DNA from: Escherichia phage FL31
DNA: 64,000 nucleotides
Direction: 5' to 3' (one strand)
Sequence record: PP400782
Shown piece after piece: positions 7,750 through 44,748 of this stretch. The notes under the pieces are model-generated. The model was not told the DNA's origin and made no database searches. It worked only from the letters and a program-made list of their open reading frames with translations. The position numbers and the translations under genes were made by a program. Each line of letters opens with the position of its first letter. Position 1 is the first letter of the stretch.

Positions 7750-7757
7750 GTATTATT

Positions 7758-8649: not shown

Positions 8650-8697
8650 TTTGTTTTCCTCTTGATTTGATAGGAGACTACTATAACATAAACTTAC

Positions 8698-8862: not shown

Positions 8863-8902
8863 TTTGTTTACTCCTCTGTAGTTGATAAGTCTATAGTATC
8901 AC
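8856..8902 (-). repeat. 47-bp exact direct repeat, copy A (early promoter -10, 5'UTR, RBS, ATG and first codons)
   Basis: TAGTCATTTTGTTTACTCCTCTGTAGTTGATAAGTCTATAGTATCAC read on the plus strand; identical at 45012-45058. Confidence 0.85.
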
Positions 8903-8930
8903 CATCCTTGGTGCTTGTACATCATTATTT

Positions 8931-9236: not shown

Positions 9237-9323
9237 AATATTCTCCTCATGTTTTGATAGGTCTATAGTAACACATCTAGGGAAGAAGTAAACAACTTTT
9301 TCAGTAAGTTATAGACCCCCTAA

Positions 9324-9339
9324 AGGGGACCGAAGTCCC
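9324..9339 (-). terminator. UUCG-tetraloop hairpin after CTS gene 9346-9972
   Basis: Minus strand GGGGAC-TTCG-GTCCCC immediately after the stop. Confidence 0.45.
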
Positions 9340-9345
9340 CATTCT

Positions 9346-9972
9346 TTACTTACGAGTTTTTGCATACTGAGCAGCGTCAGCAGCCAAACGACCTGCCTGA
9401 CGAAGTTTTTCTTTAATCGCATCGTGAAGTGGTTGAGTGTACTTCAAACCTTCGATAGTCAAATAAAGACGATAAAGGTCCGGGGTATCAAGGTTGTTGA
9501 TATGTTGGCCATTACGAAGAATATTGAATTCACGAACGAGTGAAGATGTATCGGATTCAATATCACGAACAAGCGAAGATAGTTGTTTATATTTTTTTTC
9601 CAGACTAGAAGTATCAAACTTAAGAGCAGGAGCTTTAGGAGTTGCTTTTACTTCAGGCTTAGGCTCAGGTTTTGCTATTGCTTTAGGGGTCGCAGGTTTA
9701 GGAATGGAAGGAGTAGGTTTTACTTTAGGCGAACCCGATTTAGCAGAAACACCACCACTAACAATATCTTTGAATGCTTTAGAAGCTCTGTAATATTCTT
9801 TTTGGCTGGAAGTGTCGATACCGTACATGGCTTGAACGTTTTTGAAAAACTCTGTACTAGTTTTTGTACCAGAAATAGCATCGTAAGCAGCTTGCCATTT
9901 CTCTTTTGTCATACGTACACCGGCTTCGGTGATTACTTCCGTTTCGGCTAAAAATTCATTAAAAGTATACAT
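9346..9972 (-). CDS. CTS-bearing capsid-packaged protein candidate (208 aa) with Pro/Lys-rich linker
   Basis: Trimmed to ATG 9970-9972 (MYTFNEFLAE...); RBS TAAGGA; minus-strand TATAAATA at 10008-10015; linker PKVKPTPSIPKPATPKAIAKPEPKPEVKATPKAP. Confidence 0.6.
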   Translation of the reverse strand: MYTFNEFLAETEVITEAGVRMTKEKWQAAYDAISGTKTSTEFFKNVQAMYGIDTSSQKEYYRASKAFKDIVSGGVSAKSGSPKVKPTPSIPKPATPKAIAKPEPKPEVKATPKAPALKFDTSSLEKKYKQLSSLVRDIESDTSSLVREFNILRNGQHINNLDTPDLYRLYLTIEGLKYTQPLHDAIKEKLRQAGRLAADAAQYAKTRK

Positions 9973-10007
9973 CAATGGTCCTTAGAAAGTAGGTTTATTG
10001 TTTACTA

Positions 10008-10015
10008 TATTTATA
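10008..10015 (-). promoter_or_regulatory. Late promoter TATAAATA upstream of CTS protein 9346-9972
   Basis: Minus strand reads TGTATAAATATAG about 36 nt before the ATG, directly after hairpin plus T-run. Confidence 0.5.
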
Positions 10016-10021
10016 CAAAAA

Positions 10022-10045
10022 AGCCCCAACCTTTCGGAAGGGGCT
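10022..10045 (-). terminator. Hairpin plus T-run terminator ending the tRNA/structured-RNA transcript
   Basis: Minus strand AGCCCC..GGGGCT followed by TTTTTTG. Confidence 0.55.
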
Positions 10046-10345
10046 ATATACCTTGTCGGGGTTCCACCTGCTAAGGCAAGTGTTTGTACGAAACGCCGGG
10101 ATTCGAACCCGGTTATTAAGTAGTTGACGCTACTCAATATTTTTAAAAGGCCATATCTCGACCATATCCGAACGTTCCGTCAAAAACGCTACTCGGCTTA
10201 CGGCAAAGATATTTCCTCGAATCGATAATTCGGTGCGCCGTTTCTGCTGTGATATAAGGGGGCATTAACAAAACATAAAGATTTATTAATGCCAGTCCTT
10301 ACTCAGGGAACATCAGTCCGACGACTTACCGGTAGCGACCCGGCT
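10046..10345 (-). ncRNA. Possible stable structured RNA(s), tRNA-like T-arm element
   Basis: No ORF; minus strand contains CCGGGTTCGAATCCCGG (perfect T-arm) but no cloverleaf could be built; position matches where T4 encodes small stable RNAs (recall). Confidence 0.25.
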
Positions 10346-10347
10346 TC

Positions 10348-10692
10348 TTATTTTGGCATATCATCAATTTGCTCTCGACGCCGACGCCATAGATTAATCG
10401 CTTCATAAACACATTCTGCGTTTGGTATATGACGGCAATAATATAATGATTCGCGTTTCTGGAATCGATGTTGCAATGGGATTTCGTTTAAAAGGTCTTT
10501 ACGGTCAAAGTATTCAAAACTAGTTAACCCGGAACGGTTTTTAATGAACTTCCAATGACCAAATTCATTTTGAACATAGATGTAATCTGCATGTTGGTAT
10601 AACAAATTAATCAATCGGTCTGAAATAACTGTATCATGTTCGTTAAAATAAAACGTTAAATCATGAACTACTAAGTAAACATTACCTTTCAT
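10348..10692 (-). CDS. Hypothetical protein (114 aa) within the tRNA region
   Basis: Trimmed to ATG 10690-10692 with RBS GAGGAAA; track TTG start would overlap tRNA-Arg. Confidence 0.5.
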   Translation of the reverse strand: MKGNVYLVVHDLTFYFNEHDTVISDRLINLLYQHADYIYVQNEFGHWKFIKNRSGLTSFEYFDRKDLLNEIPLQHRFQKRESLYYCRHIPNAECVYEAINLWRRRREQIDDMPK

Positions 10693-10710
10693 ATTTTCCT
10701 CACTTAAAAT

Positions 10711-10787
<77 letters not shown>

Positions 10788-10887
10788 ATGATGCGGCTTT
10801 GGGTGTTTCAGTGTTACTCGTTTGTAGGTTCTACTTTTAACCCTTATTCGAACAACTTACCTACCTAAGAGCGTACTCACCGCGAAT

Positions 10888-10962
10888 TGGTGGCCCTGGC
10901 TGGTTTCGATCCAGCTACCTATCAGTTATGAGCTGACAGCTCTCCCATTGAGCTACAGGGCC
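10888..10962 (-). tRNA. tRNA with CAU anticodon (Met, or Ile if lysidine-modified as in T4)
   Basis: Minus strand: acceptor GGCCCTG/CAGGGCC, D-arm GCTC-AATGGGA-GAGC, anticodon arm GTCAG-CTCATAA-CTGAT, T-arm GCTGG-ATCGAAA-CCAGC, encoded ACCA. Confidence 0.8.
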
Positions 10963-11058
10963 TAAATAACTTTCTATTATGAAAGGCACTTGAGGGAGCA
11001 CCTTTGGTAATAGAGGGTAGATTAATAATAACACATAATTCTTAAAGCAAATTACGTT

Positions 11059-11349
11059 TTACCGTACCATATTAATGTAGTTATATTCAATGCAACGTAA
11101 TTTCAAAGGGTTCTTGAAAATATCATATTCAAGAGGGCCTTTTTCTGTTTCAATAAAGAAATCAAAGTTAACTGTGTTAAATTTAACGTCTTCACAGAGT
11201 AATTTAACTTGTGAAGATGAACGGTCGATATAAACCTTTTCAACCTCAAAGATAGTCAGAATACCGTAGTCATTAACCAGTGCTTTAGCTGCACGTTGGT
11301 CGCTTTCATATCCGTTCTCAATGGACGATACTTTAGCATAAAGAATCAT
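11059..11349 (-). CDS. Hypothetical protein (96 aa)
   Basis: ATG 11347-11349 overlapping upstream stop (ATGA). Confidence 0.5.
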   Translation of the reverse strand: MILYAKVSSIENGYESDQRAAKALVNDYGILTIFEVEKVYIDRSSSQVKLLCEDVKFNTVNFDFFIETEKGPLEYDIFKNPLKLRCIEYNYINMVR

Positions 11350-11708
11350 GAATGTTCCACCATTTCAAAGGTATGAGCATCAACAATATGATACCAGTCA
11401 AAATTTTCTTCCGCGTTTTTATAAATTTCGCGAAGAGCTTCAACAGTTTTTCCTGTAGCAACAAGATCGTCAATACCACCAAGAGGATAACAGTAATAAC
11501 CAGCAAACAGAAGGAAATTAATAGTTTCTGTAGGTTCTGGATGCAGAACTCCGTTATCGTCTACCACTTCAAAGAAAGTGTAAGAAGGAGTACAAGTTTT
11601 AATCCAAGCCCATGCTTGAGCTGCCGAATCAAATGGTTTGCGTATCAAACGACAATCAGGGTCTTTAGAAGGATTTGCTTCAAAATCTGCATATACATGA
11701 TATTTCAT
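11346..11708 (-). CDS. Hypothetical protein (120 aa)
   Basis: ATG 11706-11708; no recognisable motif. Confidence 0.5.
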   Translation of the reverse strand: MKYHVYADFEANPSKDPDCRLIRKPFDSAAQAWAWIKTCTPSYTFFEVVDDNGVLHPEPTETINFLLFAGYYCYPLGGIDDLVATGKTVEALREIYKNAEENFDWYHIVDAHTFEMVEHS

Positions 11709-11894
11709 TTACTCACCTTTTGCAATTTTATCCATAACAATAGCGATTAAACCGATTAGAAATGCTACTACCAATGAGATAGAATTTTCTGTTGTTGTCA
11801 GTAGTCCACAAATGAATCCTACAAACATCGAAAAACTAAAAGCCATTGAAGCAATTACTACAGCAACATTACGAATCAGTTCAGCGCGTTTCAT
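11709..11894 (-). CDS. Hypothetical small membrane protein (61 aa)
   Basis: Trimmed to ATG 11892-11894 (MKRAELIRNV...) with RBS GGAGA; early promoter at 11932-11960. Confidence 0.45.
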   Translation of the reverse strand: MKRAELIRNVAVVIASMAFSFSMFVGFICGLLTTTENSISLVVAFLIGLIAIVMDKIAKGE

Positions 11895-12057
11895 TTTATT
11901 TCTCCATTTACTCATTTGTTTTGATAGGACTACTATAACATATCCCTATAGGCTTGTATACCTTTATTTCAAATATATTGCGTATTTTTTATAGCCACCA
12001 GGCTCGTGTCGAAGACCTTTATCATTCGCAAAACGTTGAATGTTATTGAACTGGTTT

Positions 12058-12228
12058 TCATCAAGTTCGGATGTGTTAAATATAAAAAAAGTTTCGTTTG
12101 TTACCAAGCGTGATATGCGGAGTTAAGTCAATGTTATACAAATTAAGAATATCAGCAATAACCTGATTAACCGCTTTGTTAATTTTCACGCCAGACGATT
12201 CTGAGATGAATTCGTTGAAAGTTTTCAT
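12058..12228 (-). CDS. Small CTS-bearing ORF (56 aa) below ORF-track cutoff
   Basis: ATG 12226-12228; MKTFNEFISESSGVKINKAV...; early promoter TTTACA-N17-TATAGT at 12261-12289. Confidence 0.4.
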
Positions 12229-12252
12229 TTTAGGTTCCATTTGGTTGTTTTG

Positions 12253-12289
12253 ATAGGACTACTATAACATAGTCCTATCATGTTGTAAA
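12253..12289 (-). promoter_or_regulatory. Early promoter with perfect 8-bp stem-loop (ATAGGACT/AGTCCTAT)
   Basis: TTTACA-N17-TATAGT; arms at 12253-12260 and 12271-12278. Confidence 0.55.
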
Positions 12290-12601
12290 TTATTTTATGC
12301 CTTTAGAAGAAATGGTATTTTGGCGTTTGGCCCCTGTTTGTGAAAAATCGTGGTTATCGATTTGGTCAACTCTCATAACACCAAATGCGGATTTAATTTT
12401 GGCTTTTGAACCTTTTTTGATACTAATTATCATATAAGTATCATTTTTCTTATATTCGAAATTTGTTACTTCAACGCCTTGATTAGAAATTGACTTAATA
12501 ATAGCATTAGCGTATTCATCATCTAATGGACCGGTAGTGTTAATAATAAAATTTTTATCTGGTTTAGTAGCTTCAGCGATAAACTCTTGATAAGTTTTCA
12601 T
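12290..12601 (-). CDS. CTS-bearing internal protein at the ipI locus (103 aa)
   Basis: Trimmed to ATG 12599-12601 (MKTYQEFIAEATKPD...), exact T4 IP leader; sits where T4 encodes ipI. Confidence 0.6.
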   Translation of the reverse strand: MKTYQEFIAEATKPDKNFIINTTGPLDDEYANAIIKSISNQGVEVTNFEYKKNDTYMIISIKKGSKAKIKSAFGVMRVDQIDNHDFSQTGAKRQNTISSKGIK

Positions 12602-12630
12602 TTGTTTTTCCGTTTGGTTTGTGATTTGAT

Positions 12631-12666
12631 AGGATGATAGTAACACACCATCATCCTTATGTAAAC
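12631..12666 (-). promoter_or_regulatory. Early promoter with 8-bp stem-loop (AGGATGAT/ATCATCCT) for the ipI-locus CTS gene
   Basis: GTTTACA-N18-TACTAT; arms 12631-12638 and 12650-12657. Confidence 0.5.
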
Positions 12667-12679
12667 TGTTTTGTGAAAA

Positions 12680-13365
<686 letters not shown>

Positions 13366-13369
13366 TTTA

Positions 13370-14104
13370 TTACCTTAAGATTTTTTCAATTTTAGAATAA
13401 AGCTCTTCTAACGAGCCGTCGTTTGTAATAACTAAGTCGCCTTCTTCAATAGGCAACCCAGCTTCTGTAATATGTTTATCAGTGGATTCCGTACCAGAGC
13501 GAACCACATGAATAACTGTAGCACCCATCGCTCTAGCGGTTTCCATTTCATGGACTTGGCGTGTATCGGTCACAACGTAGTAATCGAAATCACTTCCAAT
13601 ATAATCCATATAGTTTAATGCAAAAAGTTTAACCCAATACATACGGTCAAATAAATTAACGACAACATCCGTACCGAGGGCTTGCATAAGACGGCGGATT
13701 GACCACGTGTCGTTGATATTATTTATAGCTTCACGCAGGGCTTCGTACGGTTTAATATCTAGATATGAGTATCCACCTTCTAGTGATGATAATACGTTAA
13801 CACCATTAATTGGCAGGTATTGTCGTTGTAAATAAATTAGCGTTTCTTCCATTAATTCAATAACATCCAATTTATTGAGATTTAATGGTGTTTCACGGTC
13901 GTATCCAATGCCTTCAAAGTATTCATATTTCAACTCGGTGAATACATCAGGGTTTTCGGCATGTTTACGCTCCCAAGCTATTGCTAGAGCGTCTTTAATT
14001 GGATACGCTAATTGATATTTTATAGATTTAAAGTTTGAATTGATGTAATCAGCAGTAGTGTCTTTACCACTACGTTTGATGCCGCTTAAAAAGATTAGCT
14101 CCAT
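13370..14104 (-). CDS. 1: Deoxynucleoside monophosphate kinase gp1
   Basis: 244 aa; P-loop LSGIKRSGKDT; matches T4 gp1 along length as recalled. Confidence 0.9.
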   Translation of the reverse strand: MELIFLSGIKRSGKDTTADYINSNFKSIKYQLAYPIKDALAIAWERKHAENPDVFTELKYEYFEGIGYDRETPLNLNKLDVIELMEETLIYLQRQYLPINGVNVLSSLEGGYSYLDIKPYEALREAINNINDTWSIRRLMQALGTDVVVNLFDRMYWVKLFALNYMDYIGSDFDYYVVTDTRQVHEMETARAMGATVIHVVRSGTESTDKHITEAGLPIEEGDLVITNDGSLEELYSKIEKILR

Positions 14105-14158
14105 AGGTTTTTCCTCATATAATTTATGAACGATTATAACATATGGAGCTAGAAGCGA

Positions 14159-14743
14159 TTAGCGCAAGGAAGGGTGTCTAGAAATGGATTTAGATTCGGC
14201 AGCCTGACGTGGTTGTTGAGATACAATGACTTCGCCATCCTTTTCTATCGTCATATACGCGTAATGAATAGTTGCTACGCAAGTAACGGCAGGGTCAGAG
14301 TCTTCGGTGTAACTAAATTCAATTTCACTCAAATCAGAAATCCATGGTTTATAGAAATTCGCCGTCAAAACTACTTCAGTCTTATTGTTGTTTAAAATGT
14401 GCAAAGTAACAAACTCAGGACCATCGGAGTGTGCCGTATTATGTCCGGTTATATAGTTATTAGTGCTGAGCATCCATTTATACATGTTCATCCAGGACGT
14501 CATGTCTTCATCAACTATAAATCGTACAACAAAAGGGTCATATTCAAATGTGGTGCCTGCACGCATTGCACGTCCTAACCCCATTGTGCCTGTCACAGTT
14601 TCAACAACAGGAATTCTCACACCTGGCAATGGAGCCGTTTGGGCATTGAGCACAAAACCTGAAGTTCGTGTACTATCCGGGATATCCACAACAAAGTTTG
14701 TTATATTTGTTTGGTTAAAAATCTGTCTCGCTGGACGAGTCAT
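14159..14743 (-). CDS. 3: Tail completion and sheath stabiliser protein gp3
   Basis: Trimmed to ATG 14741-14743; NQTNITNF...APLPGVRIPV matches T4 gp3 as recalled; track start is GTG. Confidence 0.8.
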   Translation of the reverse strand: MTRPARQIFNQTNITNFVVDIPDSTRTSGFVLNAQTAPLPGVRIPVVETVTGTMGLGRAMRAGTTFEYDPFVVRFIVDEDMTSWMNMYKWMLSTNNYITGHNTAHSDGPEFVTLHILNNNKTEVVLTANFYKPWISDLSEIEFSYTEDSDPAVTCVATIHYAYMTIEKDGEVIVSQQPRQAAESKSISRHPSLR

Positions 14744-14845
14744 AAGCACCTCAAAAACGCTTTAATAAAAATGCAGTATAATGGTTTTAGGTCTCTTCCA
14801 TTAATCCGGTTTAACAGAATATCAGACGAACGGAAGAGAATAGAA

Positions 14846-15667
14846 TTAAGATTTCCAAACAGTATTTGCAGAGAAACGTTTTCCTTTTGACATAAACTGC
14901 TGAGTAGGTAACATGATTATGTTAGCCCAGTCTTTAGGAGCTATTTCTGTTATTGTTCCTCTAATGTGGCCTGGCAGGTATGCTTTAATCATTTTGTCAG
15001 CACCTTGAAATCCTTTCACCTTGCTCCAGTCTATCTTCAACTTTGTGTTATTAGTAATAGTAGTTGTGCTAGCATATTGCTTCAGCAATTCTTCAAGAAA
15101 CTGTTGACGTGCTTTAGGTGGGATATAGTGCAAGTTTAACCCATACATCAAATTATGTTTACCTAATCCTAAATAAATAATCAAAGGATATCTGTCCCAA
15201 TACGGTAGAGTATCTTTATGTTTAGCATCATACACGTAAGTATAAATTTTGCCTGGCGTAGGCTTGACTACTTTATGACCTTTTACACTTTTCTTAATTG
15301 TTTCAACAAACCACTTGGATGATTTGTTGTTTACTGCTGCGCCTTCATTTCTAATCTTTTCTCGTATTGAACTGCGAAACGAGTTTATCATCAGAAGTTG
15401 ACGTTCTTGCTTATTGAGTTTATTTTTAGGTTTAGATTCAAGCGTTTCAATTTTCTGTGCAGTCTTAATAGATGATGCATATCTAGACATTGCAGATGTA
15501 AACGACGAGTATTTTATTCCTTTTGATTCTGCAAATGCTTTTGCAGTGATTCCTTTCTCTTTAGCTTTCTTGTATTCTAATCCTATCTCAATCCATTTTC
15601 TTTCATTCATAGACTGAGCAATCTTAGGGGCTTGTACGCCTTCAGATATAATTTGGAATATGCTCAT
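14846..15667 (-). CDS. 2: DNA end protector protein gp2
   Basis: 273 aa; ATG 15665-15667; synteny 4-2-3-1-57 as in T4. Confidence 0.85.
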
Positions 15668-15669
15668 AA

Positions 15670-16119
15670 TTACCCCTTGTATCCGAGTTTTCTAAGTCCG
15701 TCTTCGGTTAGAACTCGAAATTTTATATTTCTCTTTTCAGCAACAGCTGAGGCAGCTTTCCATTTGTCACAGTTCACAGACCACGTGTAGATTTCATTCA
15801 TATAACGTTTCTTAGCCGCAGTTGTAAGATTCACCGGTTTAATAGGCGGCTGAGTTTCTTTCTTTGGTTTTATTTCTACAAAGAACTCTTGACCTGATGC
15901 ATCTTTCATCCATATGTCCATATAGTATCGACGTTTCTTACCTTCGGCATTACAAAAATATGGAATTACTGCTGTTTCACTACCCCATGCAATAATTTCT
16001 GGATTTTTATCCAACCATTCGAAAAAGAATTTTTCCCAGTTTGAACGATACGTTATTTTGGTATGGTCTCCACGGTATTTTTTTAAATTTTTTGGGACCC
16101 ATTTACCAGAGTAGGCCAT
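15670..16119 (-). CDS. 4: Head completion protein gp4
   Basis: Trimmed to ATG 16117-16119 ([11 protein letters not shown]...), 149 aa; RBS GGAGG; minus-strand TATAAATA at 16146-16153. Confidence 0.85.
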
Positions 16120-16130
16120 GTTGTCCTCCT

Positions 16131-16138
16131 TATAAATA
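16131..16138 (+). promoter_or_regulatory. Late promoter TATAAATA for gene 53
   Basis: TATAAATA 43 nt upstream of the gp53 ATG. Confidence 0.6.
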
Positions 16139-16145
16139 GTATTAT

Positions 16146-16153
16146 TATTTATA
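16146..16153 (-). promoter_or_regulatory. Late promoter TATAAATA for gene 4 (divergent from the gene 53 promoter)
   Basis: Minus strand reads GGTATAAATAATAA; gp4 ATG follows. Confidence 0.55.
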
Positions 16154-16180
16154 CCAATTTCATATTGGAAGGAGACTATC

Positions 16181-16756
16181 TTGTTATTTACATTCTTCGA
16201 CCCAATAGGATATAGTGCTAAAACAGTTGATAAGAATGCACCTACTATTCCTATGACAGACATATTTCGTAACTATAAAGAGTACTTTAAGCGTGTTGCT
16301 GCCAATTATAGATTACGTTCTTATTATATTAAAGGCTCTCCACGTCCTGAAGAACTAGCGAATATCATTTATGGCAACCCTCAATTATACTGGGTCCTTT
16401 TGATGTGTAATGATAACTATGATCCGTATTATGGTTGGATTACATCTCAGGAAGCAGCGTATCAAGCTTCTATTCAGAAGTATGCAAATGCAGGTGGAGA
16501 CCAAATTCTTTATCATATTAACGAAAAACGCGAGAAATTTTACAACTTAGTTTCATATCCAGATGAGCCATTAGTATGGTATGATAAAGGCGACAAAGCT
16601 CGTAAGTATCCGCAATATAAAGGACCTTTAGCTGCAGTAGATACTTATGAAGCGGCAGTATTAGATAATGAAAAACTTCGTAAAATAAAAATTGTTGCAA
16701 AAGAAGATATAAACTCATTTATCACTGATTTGATTCGTGAGATGGAGATTGCATAA
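16181..16756 (+). CDS. 53: Baseplate wedge protein gp53
   Basis: 191 aa MLFTFFDPIGYSAKTVDKNAPTIPMTDIFRNYK... near-identical to T4 gp53 as recalled. Confidence 0.9.
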   Translation: MLFTFFDPIGYSAKTVDKNAPTIPMTDIFRNYKEYFKRVAANYRLRSYYIKGSPRPEELANIIYGNPQLYWVLLMCNDNYDPYYGWITSQEAAYQASIQKYANAGGDQILYHINEKREKFYNLVSYPDEPLVWYDKGDKARKYPQYKGPLAAVDTYEAAVLDNEKLRKIKIVAKEDINSFITDLIREMEIA

Positions 16757-21283: not shown

Positions 21284-24200
21284 CAGTAAAAGCGCCAGCA
21301 GTCACGAGTCTCAGATTATCTAAATTGTCCGCAAACCAAGTTCAAATTCGCTGGGATGAGGTTGGCGCTAATTTCTACTATTTTGTGGAAATAGCTGAGA
21401 CCAAAACAGCTAACGGGGAAGTAATTCCACGTAATAGCTATAGATGGACTAATTTAGGATATACCGCTGATAACAATTTCTTTGAGTCCGGTTTAAATTC
21501 ATTAACAACATATATGATGCGTGTGGCTACAGCAGCGGAGGGATTTGAGCAGTCTGATTGGAGATACACCGAAGAGTTTGAAACATTTGAAATAAACGCT
21601 TACACATTCCAACATATGATTGAAATGCAATTAGCTAATGAGTTTATTTCTGAAAAATTTACAAAAAATAATACAAACTACGTTGATTTTAATAATGACA
21701 CGATCATGGCAGCCCTGATGAGCGAGTCGTTCCAATTTAGTCCTGCATACACCGATGTGTCGTCGATTAGAAATTTTATAATTGGTGAAAATCAGTATCA
21801 TGAAATCCAGGGGCATATCCAGGACGTATGTAAAGATATAAATCGAGTATATCTAATGGAATCTGAAGGAATTCTTTACCTTTTTGAAAGATTCCAACCT
21901 ATTGTAAAAGTGTCTAATGATAAAGGCCAAACATGGAAAGCGGTTAAATTGCTTAATGACCGTGTAGGATATCCACTTTCACGAACTGTATATTACCAAT
22001 CAGAATATACGACGTATTTGCTCGGCTATGATAAGATTTTTTACGGGCGTAAATCATCCGATATTCGTTGGTCTGCTGATGATGTTCGTTTCAGTTCACA
22101 AGATGTAACATTTGCTAAAATCGGGGACCGATTAAATTTAGGTTTTGATGTAGAGATTTTCGGTACATACGCGTCATTACCAGGAAACGTATCACGTATT
22201 GCAGAAGCTATTACTTGTAATGATGACTATGTTTATATTGCGGCCAGAGATAAAGTTCGCTTCGTTAAAACCAGTAACGCTCCTATTGATTCAGATCCAT
22301 TATCTCCGACCTATTCCGAACGGTTGTTTGAACCTGAGACGTTTACAATAACAGGCAACCCTAAAGCAGTTTGTTATAAAATGGATTCTGTTGGTGGAAG
22401 AATATTCGCTCTTATTATTGGTGAAGTCGAAAACGTTAATGACGACCCAAGAACAAAGCCTATTTTGGATTCCGTTGATAAAGGTGTATACGTTTTAGAC
22501 CATGACGCTGGAACATTTAAAAGGATATTTGGTAATACCGAAGAAGAACGCCGTCGTATAGAACCGGCTTTCACCAATATGTCTACTGATGGTGTTGAGC
22601 TTTATATCTCTTCTAGTAATTTTAAATTTTTAGAATCTGATATTGTTGACGACCCAGAAACGCAATCTAAGTATGGACTTTTAGAAGCAGTTAAGTATGA
22701 ATATCCTAGAGAATGGCTCGCAGATAAACATTACCATATGATGATTTTCGCATCAAACGAAGAAAGTAATTGGGAAACTTTTTCACCAACTCCTATGCAG
22801 TATTATGCAGAACCTTTCTTTAGTTATTCTAGAAAATCAGGCACACGTTCTTGGATTAATAACTCTGATAGAGCGGTAGTGATTTATTCTGATTTGCTTT
22901 ACACAAAGGTAGTGGAAAGCCACCCTAGCACTTCACCTGATCGCAAAGTTCATGAATACTGGAATGATGGCGATTGTAAGATTGTTATGCCGAATATAGA
23001 ATTCACCGGATTTAAAAAATACGCATCTGGTATGTTATTTTATAAATCATCAGGTGAAATAATTTCATATTATGATTTTAGTTATCGTGTTAGAGATAAC
23101 GTTTCTATAATTTGGAAGCCCACTAACGTATTCTTGACCGCCTCATTACAAAACCAAGAAAAAGAAACTTCTTGGGTTCCTGTTGAAGAGACAGGTCTAG
23201 CTGACCCGGATTTACGCCCATTACTCACTACAATGATGCCAGAGTCTTATCTGTTGGATAATACAAACTTTGAAGCATTTTGTGAAGCGTATATTCAATA
23301 TCTTTCTGATGGATACGGGACTCATTATAATAACTTATTGAATTTGATTAAAAATAAATACCCACGAGAAGAACACGCCTGGGAATATCTTTGGTCTGAA
23401 ATTTATAAACGGAACATTTATTTGAATGCTGAGAAACGTGATTTAGTTTCTAGGTTCTTTGAGTCCAGAAGTTATGATTTTTATTCTACTAAAGGAACTG
23501 AAGCGTCGTATAAGTTTTTGTTTAAAGTTCTTTATAACGAAGACGTTGAAGTTGAAATCGAGTCATCTGCTGGAACAGAGTACGATATCATAATTCAATC
23601 TGATTCTATAAGTGAAGATTTGGTTGGACAAACTATATACACCGCTACAGGTAGATGTAATGTTACATATTTAGAAAGAAGCTATTCTAAAGGTAAATTA
23701 CAATGGACTGTGACTATTCATAACCTTTTAGGTAGGCTTTTAGTCGGTCAAGAAGTAAAAGCCGAAAGACTAGCAGATTTTGAAGGTGAAATAGTTCGCG
23801 GTATTAAAGGTAAAGAACTTGCCCAAAACACTATCGATTATTTTAATCGTGGTAGAGCTTATTACGTCATGAAAATAAAGTCAAATCTTCCATCCTCTCG
23901 TTGGAAATCTGACGTACTACGTTTTGTACATCCGGTAGGATTTGGATTTATTGCAATAACCTTATTAACAATGTTTATTAATACAGGATTAACGCTTAAA
24001 CATGTTGGAACTATTATTAATAAATATAAAAATTATAAGTGGGATTCCGGACTGCCTACGGAATATGCAGACCGAGTCGCTCGTTTAGACCCTCAAGGTA
24101 ATGTGGAATTCAATCCTGTTACAGGTGAAGTAATTTATGATGCTGGTCCTTATGCTGGTATCGAATACCCTTTACCTGCAAATTATAACGAAGAAAATGA

Positions 24201-24378
24201 TAACTCTATTTTCCAAGGACAATTACCGTCCGAACGACGCAAGCAAATGAGCCCATTATTTGATGCATCAGGTACAACGTTCTCTAGATTTAGAGAGCTT
24301 GTTAATGAAAGATTGTTAGATAACGTGGGAAATCCTAGAGACCCGATTAATCCACCACAGGTTAAATTAGATGAATGA
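21280..24378 (+). CDS. 7: Baseplate wedge protein gp7
   Basis: 1032 aa, same length as T4 gp7; ATGA overlap with gene 6. Confidence 0.9.
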   Translation: MTVKAPAVTSLRLSKLSANQVQIRWDEVGANFYYFVEIAETKTANGEVIPRNSYRWTNLGYTADNNFFESGLNSLTTYMMRVATAAEGFEQSDWRYTEEFETFEINAYTFQHMIEMQLANEFISEKFTKNNTNYVDFNNDTIMAALMSESFQFSPAYTDVSSIRNFIIGENQYHEIQGHIQDVCKDINRVYLMESEGILYLFERFQPIVKVSNDKGQTWKAVKLLNDRVGYPLSRTVYYQSEYTTYLLGYDKIFYGRKSSDIRWSADDVRFSSQDVTFAKIGDRLNLGFDVEIFGTYASLPGNVSRIAEAITCNDDYVYIAARDKVRFVKTSNAPIDSDPLSPTYSERLFEPETFTITGNPKAVCYKMDSVGGRIFALIIGEVENVNDDPRTKPILDSVDKGVYVLDHDAGTFKRIFGNTEEERRRIEPAFTNMSTDGVELYISSSNFKFLESDIVDDPETQSKYGLLEAVKYEYPREWLADKHYHMMIFASNEESNWETFSPTPMQYYAEPFFSYSRKSGTRSWINNSDRAVVIYSDLLYTKVVESHPSTSPDRKVHEYWNDGDCKIVMPNIEFTGFKKYASGMLFYKSSGEIISYYDFSYRVRDNVSIIWKPTNVFLTASLQNQEKETSWVPVEETGLADPDLRPLLTTMMPESYLLDNTNFEAFCEAYIQYLSDGYGTHYNNLLNLIKNKYPREEHAWEYLWSEIYKRNIYLNAEKRDLVSRFFESRSYDFYSTKGTEASYKFLFKVLYNEDVEVEIESSAGTEYDIIIQSDSISEDLVGQTIYTATGRCNVTYLERSYSKGKLQWTVTIHNLLGRLLVGQEVKAERLADFEGEIVRGIKGKELAQNTIDYFNRGRAYYVMKIKSNLPSSRWKSDVLRFVHPVGFGFIAITLLTMFINTGLTLKHVGTIINKYKNYKWDSGLPTEYADRVARLDPQGNVEFNPVTGEVIYDAGPYAGIEYPLPANYNEENDNSIFQGQLPSERRKQMSPLFDASGTTFSRFRELVNERLLDNVGNPRDPINPPQVKLDE

Positions 24379-25375
24379 TTCAAGTGTTGTCTATCGTTCG
24401 ATAGTTACTTCAAAATTTAGAACTGAAAAAATGTTGAATTTCTACAATTCAATAGGTGATGGTGATAATAAAAACACCATCTTTATAACGTTTGGTCGGT
24501 CTGAACCATGGGCTGCTAATGAAAATGAGGTGGGCTTCGCCCCGCCGTATCCAACAGACTCGGTTTTAGGTGTAACAGATATGTGGACTAACATGATGGG
24601 TTTAGTTAAAGTTATCCCATCTATGTTAGACTCGGTTATTCCTAGACGTGACTGGGGAGATATTCGTTATCCAGACCCTTATACATTCAAAATAAATGAT
24701 ATAGTCGTATGTAATACAGCCCCTTATAATGCTACTGAAGACGGGGCAGGATGGTTAGTATATCGTTGCGTAGATGTTCCTGATGTTGGGATGTGTTCTA
24801 TTGAGTCTCTCGACAACAAAGAAGAATGTCTTAAATTAGGTGGTAAATGGACTCCATCTGTTAGGTCTTTAACACCTCCTGAAGGCCGTGGAGATGCTGA
24901 AGGGATTATCGAAGTTGGTGATGGATATATATGGGAGTATCTTTATGAGATTCCACCTGATGTGTCTATAAACCGATGTACTAATGAATATATAGTCGTT
25001 CCATGGCCGGAAGAAGTTAAAGAAGACCCTGCTCGTTGGGGATATGAAAACAATCTAACCTGGCAACAAGATGATTTTGGCCTTGTGTATAGAGTTAAAG
25101 CAAACATAATTCGTTTTAAAGCCTATTTAGACTCAGTTTATTTCCCTAATGCAGCACTGCCTGGTAATAAAGGATTTAGACAAATTTCTATTATCACAAA
25201 CCCGTTGGAAGCTAAACTCCGTCCTAATGACCCTAATATAAAAGCTGAAAAGGATTATTATGACCCCAGAGATTTACAGCGTCATTCTGGTGAAATGATT
25301 TATATGGAAAACCGTCCACCTATTATTATGGCAATGGACCAAACCGAAGAGATCAATATTTTGTTTATGTTCTAA
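24371..25375 (+). CDS. 8: Baseplate wedge protein gp8
   Basis: 334 aa, same length as T4 gp8; synteny. Confidence 0.9.
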   Translation: MNDSSVVYRSIVTSKFRTEKMLNFYNSIGDGDNKNTIFITFGRSEPWAANENEVGFAPPYPTDSVLGVTDMWTNMMGLVKVIPSMLDSVIPRRDWGDIRYPDPYTFKINDIVVCNTAPYNATEDGAGWLVYRCVDVPDVGMCSIESLDNKEECLKLGGKWTPSVRSLTPPEGRGDAEGIIEVGDGYIWEYLYEIPPDVSINRCTNEYIVVPWPEEVKEDPARWGYENNLTWQQDDFGLVYRVKANIIRFKAYLDSVYFPNAALPGNKGFRQISIITNPLEAKLRPNDPNIKAEKDYYDPRDLQRHSGEMIYMENRPPIIMAMDQTEEINILFMF

Positions 25376-25379
25376 TTTA

Positions 25380-25397
25380 GGGAGACTTCGGTCTCCC
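25380..25397 (+). terminator. UUCG-tetraloop hairpin after gene 8
   Basis: GGGAGAC-TTCG-GTCTCCC followed by TTT; identical 18-mer recurs at 44721-44738. Confidence 0.55.
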
Positions 25398-25404
25398 TTT
25401 CGTG

Positions 25405-25412
25405 TATAAATA
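25405..25412 (+). promoter_or_regulatory. Late promoter TATAAATA for gene 9
   Basis: TATAAATA 25 nt upstream of the gp9 ATG; AAGGA RBS. Confidence 0.6.
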
Positions 25413-25437
25413 GTATAAACTATTAAGGATTAGCCAC

Positions 25438-26301
25438 ATGTATATTCAAACTCCAAAACAATTGATTGACGTTGGCGAAATTGGTAACGCTTCTACAGGC
25501 GATATCCTTTTTGACGGCGGTGTTAAAATAAACAGTGATATAAATGCTATTTACAACGCGTTTGGTGATCAACGAAAAATGGCAACTGCTAATGGGACAG
25601 GACCAAATGGACAAATAATCCATGCCACTGGATACTACCAAAAAGGAGGTCCTACTGATTATTTCACCCCTGTTCCAGTAGGAAGTAGACATGACATAGA
25701 TGCTTCTACCGGTGGTGTTATTGTTACTGTTGCTAGAGGTGAACTCGGTGATTCCGTGGAATTTATAAATTCAAACGGGTCAATTTCTGTAAACAACCCA
25801 TTAAGTATCCAAGCATTAGATTCTATTAAAGGTGTTGCAGGTAATTTAGTTATAACTACACCTTATACTAAAGTTACTCTTCGTTGTATTTCTTCTGGTG
25901 CAGGCGGTTCAATATGGGATTATTCTACAGAAAGTATGTTTAGTCATACCGAAATTCCTGTAGACGGGACATGGAATATTATTTCAGACTATGTCAATAT
26001 TCCTCTATTTTATAAAACTGAATATAATGCTGCTAAACTTTTGGTTACATGCCAATCTGCCAACGGTAGAAAAATTAAATCATGTGAAATAAATATTCTA
26101 ATAGATACAATTAATTCAAGAGTTATTTCAACCGAATACGCAGTGATGCGCGTTGGAAATGATAACGAAGAAGATGAAATTGCGAATATTAGTTTTTCGA
26201 TAATTAACAATTTTGCCACTATGACAGTTTCTTCACATATAAATGGTCTTCGAGTGGCAGCTAAAGTTATTTCAACTCAGAAAATTAGGGTCGCTCAATA
26301 A
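25438..26301 (+). CDS. 9: Baseplate wedge protein gp9 (long tail fibre socket)
   Basis: 287 aa; IDVGEIGNASTGDILFDGG... matches T4 gp9 as recalled. Confidence 0.9.
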   Translation: MYIQTPKQLIDVGEIGNASTGDILFDGGVKINSDINAIYNAFGDQRKMATANGTGPNGQIIHATGYYQKGGPTDYFTPVPVGSRHDIDASTGGVIVTVARGELGDSVEFINSNGSISVNNPLSIQALDSIKGVAGNLVITTPYTKVTLRCISSGAGGSIWDYSTESMFSHTEIPVDGTWNIISDYVNIPLFYKTEYNAAKLLVTCQSANGRKIKSCEINILIDTINSRVISTEYAVMRVGNDNEEDEIANISFSIINNFATMTVSSHINGLRVAAKVISTQKIRVAQ

Positions 26302-28115
26302 TGAAACAAAATATTAAAATTGGGAACGTCGTTGATGACGGACAAGGCGATTACCTTCGTCGTGGTGGTGCAAAAATTAATGAAAACTTTGATGAGTTGT
26401 ATTATGAATTAGGCGATGGCGAAGTTCCATATTCCGCTGGTGCCTGGAAAACATACCATTCTTCAGATGGACTTAATTTAGCTGCTGAATGGGGTAAATC
26501 ATACGCAATTGATACTTCAACAGGGCGTGTTTCTATAAATTTACCTAAAGGAACAGTGGAAGATTATAATAAAGTAATTAGAGCCCGTGATGTATTCGCC
26601 ACATGGAATATTAACCCTGTAACATTAATTGCTGCCAGCGGTGATACTATTAAAGGTTCTTCTAGCCCAGTAGAAATCAATGTGCAGTTTTCAGACTTAG
26701 AATTAGTTTACTGTTCTCCTGGGCGATGGGAATACGTTAAAAATAAACAAATAGACAAAATTACTAGTTCTGATATTAGTAGTGTAGCTCGTAAAGAATT
26801 TTTAGTCGAAGTTCAAGGTCAAACTGATTTTCTTGATGTATTTGGGTCTGTTTCTTATAATGTGAATAATATCCGTGTAAAACATCGTGGTAACGAATTA
26901 TACTACGGTGATGCGTTCAGTGACAATAGTGACTTTGGTTCTCCAGGAGCTAATCCTGGTGAAATCGTTGCATTAGATGGTAAAAACATCCGTTTAAGAC
27001 AACCATGTAATATTGGCGACACCGTACAAATTGAAACCTTTTTGGATGGGATTACACAATTACGCAGTTCTTATTCTCGCCGCCAAATACGTATTTTAGA
27101 TTCGAAATTAACAACCCGTCCTTCCTTAGAAGGAAGTGTATATGTCGCTGATTTGTCAACTTTGAAATCTATTCCTTTTTCGGCATTTGGAGTTAATCCT
27201 TCAGAACCTGTCAATACTAATTCTTTAGAAGTTCGTTTTAATGGTATTCTTCAAGAATTAGCTGGTACTGTTGGTTTACCTATGTTCAGATGTGAAGGTG
27301 CTGATGCAGAAACTTCTACCGAGTGTTCAGCTTTAGGTGGGACTTGGGTTACATCTAACACCGATTATTCTATTGAATATGATGATAACGATGCAACTAT
27401 TGCACGTGCTTTAGTCTTTGACCGTAAGTTTGAAGACCAAGACATTATTGATATTACATGGTTTAATAACGATTTAGGCACTTTATTAAGTATCGATGAC
27501 ATTTTAGATACAACTGATGAAAGATATGTTGCACAAGGTGCAACCGTAAATGTGACCGGCGATGTGGCTTTGACCGATTTCAATAATATCGGATGGCCTA
27601 ATGTAGAATCTGTTCCGGCATATAGCAGGGAATTCTCATCTATTGCAAATATTTTTAACACTATTTACCCTGTCGGTACTATTTACGAAAATGCAGTGAA
27701 CCCTAATAACCCAGCCACGTATTTAGGATTTGGCTCTTGGAAATTATGGGGACAAGGAAAAGTATTAGTTGGATGGAACGACGATATTAGCGATCCTAAT
27801 TTTGCATTAAATAATAACGACCTTGATTCTAGCGGGAATCCTACACATACCGCCGGTGGAACAGTCGGAACAACGTCTAACACACTAACTAATTCTGATT
27901 TACCTCCTACTCAAACTGACGAGAAAGTTCTTATTTCCGATGAGAACGGTACAATTATTATTGGTGGCTGTCAATACGACCCTGATGCAGAAGGTCCTAT
28001 ATACACCAAATACCGTGAAGGCCACGCCACAACGAATAGTACACACATACCGCCTCAAGCCGTAAATAATATTCAACCGTCAATTACCGTATACCGTTGG
28101 GTAAGGATTGCATAA
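26301..28115 (+). CDS. 10: Baseplate wedge protein gp10
   Basis: 604 aa; synteny 9-10-11-12. Confidence 0.9.
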
Positions 28116-28774
28116 TGACCATACTTAATACTAAAGCGGGAGTAATATCCCGCGAAGCAGATTTTTTAGGATTTAGAAAAAATCCTACTCAAATTGATAT
28201 TTTAAACAACCAAGGCGTAGGTTCTGTAACCATTTCTCAATTGGCAAAAGGATTCTACGATGATAACGTAGAATCTGCAATAAACGATGTTCATAATATT
28301 GCTAGAGCAGATGTAGGAACAGTTACAATTAACACCTCAGGTGTATCTCCTGAAGGAACTTCACAGGTAGATTATTGGTCCTTTAGTGGAAGTGTAACTG
28401 ACCCTAGTTTGCCCGATGGAAGCCCTGTTATTGTAAAAGTTTACGGGCTTCCTGTTAATGCTACTGTAGGTATGACAGCCGACGAATTTGTTGTACAATT
28501 ACGTACTACTCTCCGGAATGCGATTTCCGACCAATTGGCTATTGCAGAGTATAAAGATGACCCTACTGTTGGGACTAAATTACAAATAACATATTTAGAT
28601 AACCAAAGACACGTACTCCCAACGTATTCCTCTTATGGTATCACGGTTTCTCAAGAAATAGTGTCTCAGGCTAAGTCCGGGTACGGCACTTGGAATTTAC
28701 TAGGTGCGCAAACCATTACTCTTGACAACCATATTTCACCTACAACCTTTTATTATTTTGTGAGAACCGCATGA
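28115..28774 (+). CDS. 11: Baseplate wedge protein gp11 (short tail fibre attachment)
   Basis: Trimmed to ATG 28115 ([20 protein letters not shown]...), 219 aa; TAATG overlap with gene 10; track start is TTG. Confidence 0.9.
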
Positions 28775-30321
28775 GTAACAATACATATCAACACGTTTCG
28801 AACGAATCGGTATATGTTGAATTTGACCCGGTAGGGTCAAATTTTGATAGTTCAATAACCAATGTCCAGGCAGCCTTAGCCTCAATTAGCGCATATGGTG
28901 TTAAAGGTGTTCCGGACGCAAGCGAAGCAGAAAAAGGTGTAATTCAATTAGCGACAGAACAAGAAGTTCTTGATGGATTTAATAGTACTAAAGCCGTTAC
29001 ACCCGCCACATTAAATGCAAGACTTCAGTATCCGAACGCGTCAGAAACACAGTACGGCGTAACTAAATATGCAACACAAGAGGAGGCCATTGCTGGCACT
29101 TTAGACACTGTTTCTATTACTCCGCTTAAATTAAACCAAACTATTGATAACACGTTCTCTACTCGTTATTCAACAGAAACAACTAACGGTGTTATTAAAA
29201 TTGCAACTCAAACCGCTGCACTTGCCGGGTCTGATGACACCACAGCAATGACTCCGCTTAAAACGCAGCAATTAGCAATAAAATTAATTTCTCAAATAGC
29301 TCCTAATAACGACCCGGCTTCAGAATCTATTACCGGTGTTGTGCGTTTAGCTACGGTGGCTCAAACACGTCAAGGAACTCTTCGCGAAGGATATGCAATT
29401 TCCCCATATACCTTTATGAATTCTGTTGCAACACAAGAATATAAAGGTGTTATACGTCTAGGAACACAAGCGGAAATTAATAGTAATTTGGGAGATGTTG
29501 CTGTAACAGGTGAAACGCTAAATGGTAGAGGAGCTACCGGTTCTATGCGTGGAGTCGTAAAATTAACGACGCAGGCCGGTATTGCCCCTGAAGGCGATAG
29601 CTCCGGAGCATTAGCATGGAACGCAGATGTAATTAATACACGCGGTGGACAAACTATTAATGGTTCTTTAAATTTAGATCACCTCACAGCAAATGGAATT
29701 TGGTCGCGTGGCGGAATGTGGAAAAACGGTGACCAGCCAGTTGCAACAGAGAGATATGCATCTGAACGTGTTCCTGTTGGAACAATTCAAATGTTCGCAG
29801 GTGATAGCGCTCCTCCAGGTTGGGTTTTATGTCATGGTGGGACCATTTCTGGAGACCAATTTCCGGACTATCGAAATGTGGTTGGAACAAGATTTGGCGG
29901 TGATTGGAATAATCCTGGAATTCCGGATATGCGCGGCCTTTTTGTTAGAGGAGCTGGTACTGGCAGTCATATTTTAAATAATCGTGGCCAAGACGGCTAT
30001 GGAAAGGATAGATTAGGTGTAGGATGTGACGGCATGCATGTTGGTGGTGTCCAAGCACAACAAATGTCATATCATAAACATGCCGGTGGATGGGGCGAAT
30101 ATCAACGTCATGAGGCACCGTTCGGAGCATCCGTATATCAAGGTTATTTAGGTACTAGAAAATACTCTGATTGGGATAACGCATCATATTTCACAAATGA
30201 CGGCTTCGAATTAGGTGGTCACCGCGACGCGCTGGGTACTCTTAACCGTGAAGGACTTATCGGATATGAGACTCGTCCGTGGAATATATCTTTAAATTAT
30301 ATTATTAAAGTCCATTACTAA
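28771..30321 (+). CDS. 12: Short tail fibre protein gp12
   Basis: 516 aa; repeat-rich N-terminal half and His-rich C-terminal receptor-binding region. Confidence 0.9.
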
Positions 30322-31778: not shown

Positions 31779-31794
31779 AGGGCCTTCGGGCCCT
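31779..31794 (+). terminator. UUCG-tetraloop hairpin after wac
   Basis: AGGGCC-TTCG-GGCCCT immediately after the wac stop. Confidence 0.5.
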
Positions 31795-31805
31795 AAAGGA
31801 TTTAT

Positions 31806-33521: not shown

Positions 33522-33539
33522 ACCGGCCGAAAGGCCGGT
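33522..33539 (+). terminator. GNRA-loop hairpin after gene 14
   Basis: ACCGGCC-GAAA-GGCCGGT followed by AGGAG RBS of gene 15. Confidence 0.45.
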
Positions 33540-38708: not shown

Positions 38709-38740
38709 TAAGACGCCTGATGGGCTATTTCGGTAGCCCA

Positions 38741-38748
38741 TATAAATA
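38741..38748 (+). promoter_or_regulatory. Late promoter TATAAATA for gene 19, preceded by hairpin 38721-38740
   Basis: TGGGCTA-TTTCGG-TAGCCCA hairpin immediately followed by TATAAATA. Confidence 0.6.
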
Positions 38749-39312: not shown

Positions 39313-39360
39313 TCTGGTTGGGGAGAAATCCCCAGCTTCCCGTGATGACGGAGAAGTCCA

Positions 39361-39368
39361 TATAAATA
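39361..39368 (+). promoter_or_regulatory. Late promoter TATAAATA for gene 20
   Basis: TATAAATA 28 nt upstream of the gp20 ATG. Confidence 0.6.
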
Positions 39369-44696: not shown

Positions 44697-44720
44697 TCTT
44701 AATTGATTAAATCTTATTTT

Positions 44721-44738
44721 GGGAGACTTCGGTCTCCC
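44721..44738 (+). terminator. UUCG-tetraloop hairpin plus T-run after gene 23
   Basis: GGGAGAC-TTCG-GTCTCCC followed by ATTTTTGG; same 18-mer as 25380-25397. Confidence 0.65.
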
Positions 44739-44748
44739 ATTTTTGGTT

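Follow-up and report, generated by a model that had tools for sequence, protein, structure and literature searches.

UUCG-loop hairpins after genes 8 and 23 of an RB69-like phage as probable RNA-level punctuation of late transcripts

When a short palindrome stands, letter for letter, behind two late structural genes of a phage, does it act in the DNA or in the transcripts, and does the identity of the two copies mean anything? This question is raised by a 64,000-nt stretch of Escherichia phage FL31 (sequence record PP400782; hereafter, the window), in which an identical UUCG-loop hairpin had been predicted from the letters alone after gene 8 and gene 23. Our search of the window located the 18-mer GGGAGACTTCGGTCTCCC exactly, on the + strand, at 25380-25397 and 44721-44738. 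No further copy with up to two mismatches is present elsewhere in the window, and 100 dinucleotide-preserving shuffles yielded no match. The first copy begins 4 nt past the stop codon of the gene 8 homologue (CDS 24371-25375), and the second begins 24 nt past that of the gene 23 homologue (CDS 43128-44696).

By sequence similarity, the window is assigned to an RB69-like Mosigvirus (Straboviridae, T4 family): its segments 24000-27000 and 43500-46000 are approximately 99% identical to RB69-type phages (vB_EcoM_WFL6982 and RB69). Gene names were obtained by transferring the RB69 annotation onto the open reading frames of the window. Early and middle genes occupy the − strand at positions 1-16263, and the late structural block, from gene 53 to gene 24, occupies the + strand at 16181-46403. 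Beyond 46403 the strands alternate: rnlB-inh (−), uvsW and uvsW.1 (+), uvsY-26 (−), 51-54 (+), and alt.-3-30 (−). Only 5.4% of the window is intergenic. A search of the whole window against Rfam at the gathering score returned two tRNAs only, and no curated family matches the hairpins. The features at the two focal sites are as follows.

25379..25398, + strand: focal hairpin 1, A-GGGAGAC-UUCG-GUCUCCC-U, 8 bp, with a C-G closing pair and a UUCG loop
25398..25405, + strand: weak U-rich tail UUUCGUGU after focal hairpin 1, with 5 T in 8 nt, 3 of them contiguous
25405..25412, + strand: core of a T4-type late promoter, TATAAATA; the gene 9 ATG (25438) lies 26 nt downstream
44720..44739, + strand: focal hairpin 2, U-GGGAGAC-UUCG-GUCUCCC-A, 8 bp, with a UUCG loop
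44740..44749, + strand: U tract UUUUUGGUUU after focal hairpin 2, a canonical U5 preceded by an A

Free-energy calculation, which had been proposed as a check on the prediction, gave −13.6 kcal/mol for each focal hairpin alone, with G-C pairs making up five of the eight base pairs. Both hairpins are the minimum-energy and centroid folds of their contexts (56 nt for focal hairpin 1), with z-scores of −3.2 (gene 8) and −4.5 (gene 23), and none of 200 shuffled contexts was as stable as either. Both copies are thus the stable GC-rich stem-loop expected of an intrinsic terminator. They also have the C(UUCG)G configuration on the RNA strand, namely a UUCG loop with C-G closure, as the + strand is the sense strand of genes 8 and 23. 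Cleavage by RegB at the GGAG of the 5' arm was considered and set aside, given that a very stable stem sequesters this motif and that the transcripts are late.

The 18-mer is a near-perfect palindrome as DNA and adjoins a variable region that holds segD in T4, features that would suit an element acting in the duplex, such as a site for a dimeric protein, a cruciform, a recombination or packaging signal, or the target of a homing endonuclease. A DNA palindrome, however, has no reason to favor UUCG over CGAA, and the window favors it strongly. Within perfect stems of at least 5 bp, all of which were inventoried, we found 8 of the 218 sense-strand UUCG occurrences and none of the 276 sense-strand CGAA occurrences (one-sided P of approximately 0.001 by our own arithmetic), which bears out the strand-consistent use of tetraloops noted in the original prediction. 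Seven of the eight stem-flanked UUCG are intergenic, and every strong intergenic tetraloop hairpin has a UNCG or GNRA loop on the sense strand, with no case of the reverse complement. GNRA loops with Watson-Crick closure on the transcribed strand were found at 33522 (GAAA), 39319 (GAAA), and 46408 (GUAA), all on the + strand after + strand genes. A single GNRA hairpin in antisense orientation, at 60226, lies inside a CDS. Under RNA nearest-neighbor parameters, folding of the sense strand is favored over that of the antisense strand by 0.9 kcal/mol at each UUCG or GNRA hairpin, a difference that corresponds to the bonus of the model, and in contexts of 46-56 nt the hairpins of the window are the minimum-energy folds. 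In addition, T tracts are coupled to the UUCG orientation, and the T-rich tails of the focal hairpins occur on the strand of the upstream gene only.

Comparison across T4-like phages, including the covariation analysis that had been suggested for related phages, tells further against a role in duplex DNA. We sampled 54 gp8 loci and 75 gp23 loci from IMG/VR, with protein identities to the window ranging from 99% down to approximately 32%, and scored simple hairpins with a folding energy of −9 kcal/mol or lower, no farther than 110 nt from the stop codon. Of the gene 8 loci, 48 of 53 have such a hairpin, as do all 67 gene 23 loci, compared with 2 of 30 coding control segments from the same loci; both sites show the conserved gene-end position of an intrinsic terminator. 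The stems are diverse among relatives (GGGAGAC, GGGAGCC, GGGACCC, GGGCC, AAGCCACC, and AAAGCCAAUUC). In alignments centered on the loop, two-sided changes were seen in 8/8 pairs of the gene 8 stems and 7/8 pairs of the gene 23 stems. The proportions of paired cells, 95.8 and 98.3%, respectively, are high partly by construction, because the sequences were preselected as hairpins; when the partner columns were slid, pairing dropped to 23%-69%. Evidence free of this selection comes from how often a hairpin recurs at the syntenic position relative to the coding control and from the strand asymmetry.

This asymmetry is pronounced among the relatives. Unique hairpins after gene 8 have UUCG loops in 15 and GNRA loops in 5 of 31 cases, and those after gene 23 have UNCG loops in 15 and GNRA loops in 10 of 41 cases. 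Reverse-complement loops are absent from the relatives' unique hairpins at both sites, the contrast being 45 to 0 for UNCG plus GNRA, and 27 UUCG plus 3 UACG against none in a count of these loops alone. The closing pair is C-G in 23/24 (gene 8) and 22/22 (gene 23), and stability favors the sense strand in 21 and 30 cases, as opposed to 3 and 4 for the antisense strand. Stems that vary freely while remaining paired are the opposite of what a sequence-specific protein site would require, and the G.U pairs that are present correspond to A.C mismatches on the other strand. On the basis of strand asymmetry and covariation, we reject both chance and a DNA palindrome, the latter being extremely improbable. 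Moreover, at least 4 T in 8 nt follow 24/30 of the relatives' unique hairpins after gene 8 and 37/40 of those after gene 23, and a TATAAAT-like late-promoter motif lies within 25 nt of the gene 8 hairpin in 26/30 unique relatives. The conserved position, covarying stems, C-G closure, UUCG/GNRA loops, and T-rich tails support an RNA-level role.

The two copies differ in what follows them. Downstream of the gene 23 18-mer lies ATTTTTGGTTT, and a simple consensus terminator scan of the window listed this site, which is one-directional because the reverse strand lacks a U tract (AAAAUAAG). The gene 8 18-mer is followed by TTTCGTG and then by TATAAATA, and the same scan did not list it. In terms of the U tract, the gene 23 tail is canonical and the gene 8 tail is borderline; TransTerm and ARNOLD accept both. 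The late promoter motif has 18 matches in the window as compared with 8.5 expected.

With the sequence, fold, strand asymmetry, and covarying position observed, we infer from sequence, conservation, and precedent that both focal hairpins likely function at the RNA level, the gene 23 copy as a predicted terminator and protector and the gene 8 copy as a partial terminator or protector after which gene 9 is restarted. GGGAGAC-UUCG-GUCUCCC would act in the late mRNA and not in DNA, each copy folding, once transcribed, into an 8-bp stem under a very stable C(UUCG)G tetraloop. The gene 23 copy, together with UUUUUGG, would form a rho-independent terminator of the classical type, at which the abundant major-capsid transcripts end, and the stem-loop left at the 3' end of the mRNA would block 3'-to-5' exonucleases. 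The gene 8 copy, at the close of the gene 6-7-8 transcripts, would most likely terminate in part and protect the 3' end, with gene 9 re-initiated at its own late promoter TATAAATA, 7 nt further downstream; given this promoter, gene 9 would be independent of read-through. Owing to its weak U tract and the late promoter downstream, the gene 8 copy is probably leaky. Indeed, with three contiguous U and no call in the simple scan, termination at this site may be inefficient or negligible.

Other hairpins of the window show that tetraloops and terminators do not coincide completely. Besides the focal copies, the original prediction had listed six hairpins (31779, 48076, 62540, 9324, 33522, and 46412), all of which are present, with the loops as described on the strand of the upstream gene. 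Similar hairpins absent from its list occur at 7732, 38720, 39319, 51469, and 60031. All of these hairpins are given below, in order of position.

7732-7749, − strand: UCCG (UNCG) hairpin between e.6 and e.5, tail UUUUGG
9325-9340, − strand: UUCG hairpin after the open reading frame 9346-9972, weak tail UUUAGGGGG
31779-31794, + strand: UUCG hairpin AGGGCC-UUCG-GGCCCU between wac and gene 13, without a U tract, Shine-Dalgarno AAGGA directly after
33522-33539, + strand: GAAA (GNRA) hairpin between genes 14 and 15, without a U tract, adjoining the gene 15 Shine-Dalgarno AGGAG, z = −4.4
38720-38741, + strand: UUCG hairpin with a U.G closing pair after gene 18, without a U tract
39319-39334, + strand: GAAA hairpin after gene 19, without a U tract, late promoter at 39361-39368
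46408-46433, both strands: bidirectional A5-GGGACC-GUAA-GGUCCC-U5 where gene 24 and rnlB converge, with a GNRA loop as read along gene 24 (+)
48076-48093, − strand: UUCG hairpin after hoc, tail UUUCUUCGUUUU, listed by the terminator scan
51469-51486, + strand: UUCG hairpin overlapping the uvsW stop codon, adjoining the uvsW.1 Shine-Dalgarno GGAG, without a U tract
60031-60053, both strands: stem GGGAGAC/GUCUCCC as in the focal hairpins, loop of 3 nt (GUU on +, AAC on −), located where genes 54 and alt.-3 converge
62539-62556, − strand: UUCG hairpin between alt.1 and alt, tail UUUUUGG, followed by CATAAATA

The hairpin at 46408 was also listed by the simple terminator scan, and that at 60031 is flanked by an A-tract and a T-tract on both sides. 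The U.G closure of the 38720 hairpin forms on the + strand only, and its 3' end overlaps a late promoter, TATAAATA, at 38741-38748. The 9325 hairpin has a z-score of 0 in its context, because a downstream G-run provides competing pairing. When the hairpins are grouped by what follows them on the sense strand, T-rich tails are found at 7732, 9325 (weak), 25379 (weak), 44720, 46408, 48076, 60031, and 62539, and the U tract is missing at 31779, 33522, 38720, 39319, and 51469. These last five cannot be efficient terminators, since they have no U tract. Three of them adjoin the next Shine-Dalgarno sequence, and two have late promoters downstream. The proposal that the hairpins work at the RNA level as terminators or stabilizers, as in T4, is supported overall by loop orientation, context folds, covariation, T-rich tails, and the terminator predictions for RB69 and in GenBank, with efficient termination being untenable for these five.

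The five hairpins also bring in the view that the hairpins act after transcription only, either as barriers to 3' exonucleases after a cut further downstream by RNase E or a different endonuclease, or as insulators that keep the next ribosome-binding site unstructured, and that they would thereby set the relative stability of the segments of polycistronic late mRNAs. The weak U tract of the gene 8 copy is compatible with this view. Likewise, a 5' CUUCGG hairpin is noted in the literature to stabilize T4 gene 32 mRNA (PMC8948821). The wac/13 junction provides further support. In the window, the gene 13 ATG lies 11 nt past the stem of the 31779 hairpin, and, of 42 unique contexts examined upstream of gene 13, 38 retain a tetraloop hairpin (UUCG in 29, GNRA in 7). 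In 20 contexts, the stretch from the end of the hairpin to the ATG measures 9-15 nt and holds no promoter, so that gene 13 must be expressed by read-through there; in 15 others, a T-rich tail comes after the hairpin, then a late promoter and a Shine-Dalgarno sequence. Given that the hairpin is kept whether or not it is able to terminate, we argue for an extra post-transcriptional role at this junction, in RNA stability or in presentation of the ribosome-binding site. For the hairpins as a whole, however, action after transcription only appears quite unlikely: the gene 23 copy has a canonical U5 tract, the 18-mer in UUCG orientation is followed by at least 5 T in 8 nt in 70 of 81 independent occurrences, and T-rich tails are usual after both genes among relatives. 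The roles of terminator and stabilizer are not exclusive, since a terminator hairpin protects the 3' end as well.

Hairpins of this kind have a long history. C(UUCG)G hairpins of the T4 intercistronic regions were reportedly described by Tuerk et al. in 1988 (PNAS 85:1364). The presence of UUCG on the transcribed strand in the window repeats an observation first made in T4 in that year. Two later papers, which trace the finding to Tuerk 1988, describe CUUCGG hairpins as abundant in T4 intergenic regions and exceptionally stable (PMC4371310, PMC8948821). The hairpins of the window share with those of T4 the family, the motif, the C-G closure, the intergenic placement past stop codons, and the mRNA-strand orientation; only the stems differ, which is nothing essential, and one stem happens to appear twice in the window. 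T4, like the window, has UUCG hairpins at the orthologous junctions after gene 23, after hoc, and between alt.1 and alt. After gene 8, T4 has GGGAGCC-CAUG-GGCUCCC where the window has GGGAGAC-UUCG; after gene 23, the UUCG loop is common to both genomes, but the T4 stem is different (AGGGAACC-UUCG). The T4 hoc hairpin is identical to that at 48076, and the 39319 hairpin is conserved after T4 gene 19. Compensated stems with unchanged loops are seen in T4 at 18/19 (the UUUCGG loop of 38720) and at alt.1/alt (62539). Other junctions have diverged: T4 has GCAA in place of the UUCG of the window at wac/13, the T4 14/15 junction has no counterpart of the 33522 hairpin, and at 24/rnlB the GNRA loop belongs to opposite strands, being GAAA on that of rnlB in T4 and GUAA on that of gene 24 in the window.

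Stabilizing stem-loops between the cistrons of polycistronic bacterial mRNAs are exemplified by the REP elements of malEFG and the hairpins of the puf operon. The wac/13, 14/15, and uvsW/uvsW.1 hairpins resemble these elements in sitting between co-transcribed genes, but they are single short tetraloop hairpins at fixed spacing to the Shine-Dalgarno sequence and do not constitute a sequence-conserved repeat family. With the rho-independent terminators of E. coli and T4, the focal hairpins share the GC-rich stem, the 4-nt loop, and the 3' T-rich tail past the gene, whereas the gene 8 copy departs from them in its short, interrupted U tract and in the late promoter directly after it. The gene 8/9 arrangement is comparable to that of the T4 mobE terminator, for which approximately 30% termination was determined experimentally and which is followed by a promoter for nrdB (PMC2988022).

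Why, then, are the two copies identical? Their flanks have nothing in common outside the hairpin. Nor does the window hold a dispersed repeat family of the REP/BIME or MITE type: two exact copies and one copy sharing the stem were found, with unrelated flanks. It is conceivable that the 18-mers and the 60031 stem arose by copying between sites, through short-patch gene conversion or recombination in a recombinogenic T4-type genome, an account that concerns the origin of the hairpins and not their function. In the sister Mosigvirus clade (APCEc01), gene 8 is followed by GGGAGCC-UUCG-GGCUCCC, which is one compensated C-G/A-U pair away from the window, and this single base pair is the one that makes the hairpin of the window match that of gene 23. 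The gene 23 version is the more widespread, with approximately 99 records at least 99% identical at its junction versus approximately 46 at the gene 8 junction. Several other genomes also share a stem between gene 8 and gene 23, in 7 of 25 unique stem-plus-loop combinations against 2.9 expected (P of approximately 0.01).

This excess did not persist once only unique stem pairs were counted, a rough correction for common descent (3 of 17 against 1.4 expected, P = 0.15), and we accordingly make no claim that the stems behind genes 8 and 23 have evolved in concert. In IMG/VR, at least 120 stretches of viral contigs carry the exact 18-mer; in a sample of 80 such loci, 39 showed tblastx similarity to the window, leaving about half without it. 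The same 18-mer is also found at the wac/13 junction of other T4-like genomes. Its recurrence in many contigs and at other junctions suggests that the stem is one of a small repertoire of favored G-rich stems, reached repeatedly by convergence. Copying between sites is therefore unlikely as the source of the match, and short-patch gene conversion is not needed to account for it. The exact identity that headed the original prediction is real, but it has no demonstrable meaning, given the P value of 0.15 and the many viral stretches carrying the 18-mer; most probably, it is not meaningful. We also entertained, as a speculation to which we give little credence, that the hairpins of T4-like phages are interchangeable cassettes spread by short-patch gene conversion (8/9, 23/ORF, and 54/alt.-3) and that, separately, UUCG/GNRA hairpins without a U tract located 9-12 nt before a start codon (wac/13, 14/15, and uvsW/uvsW.1) form a conserved module coupling protection of the upstream mRNA to presentation of the ribosome-binding site.

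Both focal sites are already known and annotated as predicted terminators, and in this respect nothing here is new. The TransTerm list for RB69 names "8-->9" at 89887-89904 and "23-><-RB69ORF188c" at 109234-109251, which are the focal sites (Nolan et al. 2006, PMC1524935, Additional file 6). The same list holds "54-><-alt.-3" as bidirectional (60031), "24-><-rnlB" (46408), "24.3<--hoc" (48076), "alt<--alt.1" (62539), and "e.5<--e.6" (7732) (PMC1524935). It thus includes all of the T-tailed hairpins except that at 9325, whose flanking genes differ from those of RB69, and none of the five without a U tract (31779, 33522, 38720, 39319, and 51469). GenBank record MK373774 carries ARNOLD terminator features at both focal sites. 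We found no Term-seq, long-read, or other 3'-end mapping for T4 or RB69 at these sites in the searchable literature; the reviews of T4 late transcription and post-transcriptional control do not discuss the hairpins, and the Term-seq methods paper does not mention tetraloops.

The importance of these findings beyond annotation is small. Within it, they indicate that an RB69-type genome uses the classical punctuation of T4, in which a tetraloop hairpin is followed by a U tract and then by a late promoter, and the comparative tables illustrate the covariation of stems at a fixed position together with selection for UNCG and GNRA loops on the RNA strand. They also tell likely true terminators apart from hairpins that have to be read through, a distinction useful for phage engineering and for interpreting coverage steps in RNA-seq.

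The stem shared by the two identical UUCG hairpins downstream of genes 8 and 23 (GGGAGAC/GUCUCCC) is also found in a third hairpin of the window:

60031-60053, hairpin with the GGGAGAC/GUCUCCC stem and a 3-nt loop

Flanked by A3 and T3, this hairpin occupies the junction of the convergent genes 54 and alt.-3, where its RB69 counterpart has been published as a predicted bidirectional terminator (PMC1524935).

Hairpins are also present inside coding sequences:

28820-28843, + strand, perfect 10-bp stem, AATTTGACCC-GGTA-GGGTCAAATT, in gene 12 (CDS 28771-30321)
13048-13070, - strand, 9-bp GC-rich hairpin, TGCGCTGGA-AGACC-TCCAGCGCA, in CDS 12680-13135 (57B homologue)
56240-56261, GC-rich hairpin of 8-9 bp, in gene 29 (CDS 56175-57947)
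52104-52121, - strand, UUCG hairpin with a 7-bp A/U-rich stem, in uvsY.-1 (CDS 51987-52211)

The gene 12 hairpin (-13.3 kcal/mol) is located 50 nt past the start of the coding sequence for the short tail fibre, and its GGTA loop is neither UNCG nor GNRA. The hairpin within the 57B homologue is strong, at approximately -15.5 kcal/mol. On the antisense (-) strand of gene 29, the stem is followed by TTTTTGTGG and was listed as terminator-like on that strand; this hairpin might be a stop for antisense transcription through the late genes. The uvsY.-1 hairpin (-6.8 kcal/mol) has UUCG on the sense strand of the gene; of the eight sense-strand UUCG loops between perfect stems of at least 5 bp, this one alone lies in a coding sequence.

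Two further hairpins are located on the - strand outside coding sequences:

12251-12280, - strand, perfect 11-bp hairpin, TGATAGGACTA-TGTTATAG-TAGTCCTATCA, in the gap between two small - strand ORFs
9325-9365, - strand, UUCG hairpin GGGGAC-UUCG-GUCCCC, followed by UUUAGGGGGUC

The former has a loop of 8 nt, lacks a U tract and is not of the tetraloop type (a UNCG or GNRA loop on the sense strand). As for the latter, the G-run in UUUAGGGGGUC, 3' of the hairpin, is a possible competitor for the CCCC arm, and the z-score of the hairpin folded in its context was 0. The G-run could represent an alternative pairing or an accident.

A longer ORF-free stretch on the same strand contains a hairpin and a late promoter at its end:

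9976-10347, - strand, ORF-free stretch of 372 nt, 3' of two tRNA genes
10022-10045, - strand, GAAA-type hairpin at the end of this stretch, followed by U6
10008-10015, late promoter TATAAATA, after the U6

A tRNA-like T-arm, GGGTTCGAATCCCGG, was found inside the stretch at 10096-10112. When aligned, T4 70825-71167, which includes the small stable RNAs rnaD (species 2) and rnaC (species 1), was 91% identical to the first 335 nt of the stretch, and 679 phage records matched at least 80% of it. Rfam contained no family for the stretch, the sole match being a sub-threshold one to isrK.

Upstream of gene 13 (window 31779-31805), T4-like phages (loci L256-L321) exhibit two architectures of the wac/13 junction, both of which contain a tetraloop hairpin. 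In one, the hairpin adjoins the Shine-Dalgarno sequence, its end being 9-15 nt 5' of the ATG; in the other, a T-rich tail comes after the hairpin, then a late promoter and finally the Shine-Dalgarno sequence.

Differences from T4 were also observed around gene 24. Between genes 23 and 24, the window carries an antisense ORF:

44749-45018, - strand, ORF of 89 aa

At this position, T4 has the homing endonuclease gene segD. The RB69 annotation has two short fragments only; in Pfam, the sole match of the ORF was DUF4859, below threshold. In the window (46408-46433), the bidirectional hairpin between gene 24 and rnlB has its GNRA loop, GUAA, on the strand of gene 24; in T4 (locus L133, 30610-30635), the GNRA loop, GAAA, is on the strand of rnlB. 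The strand favoured by the loop is flipped between these relatives.
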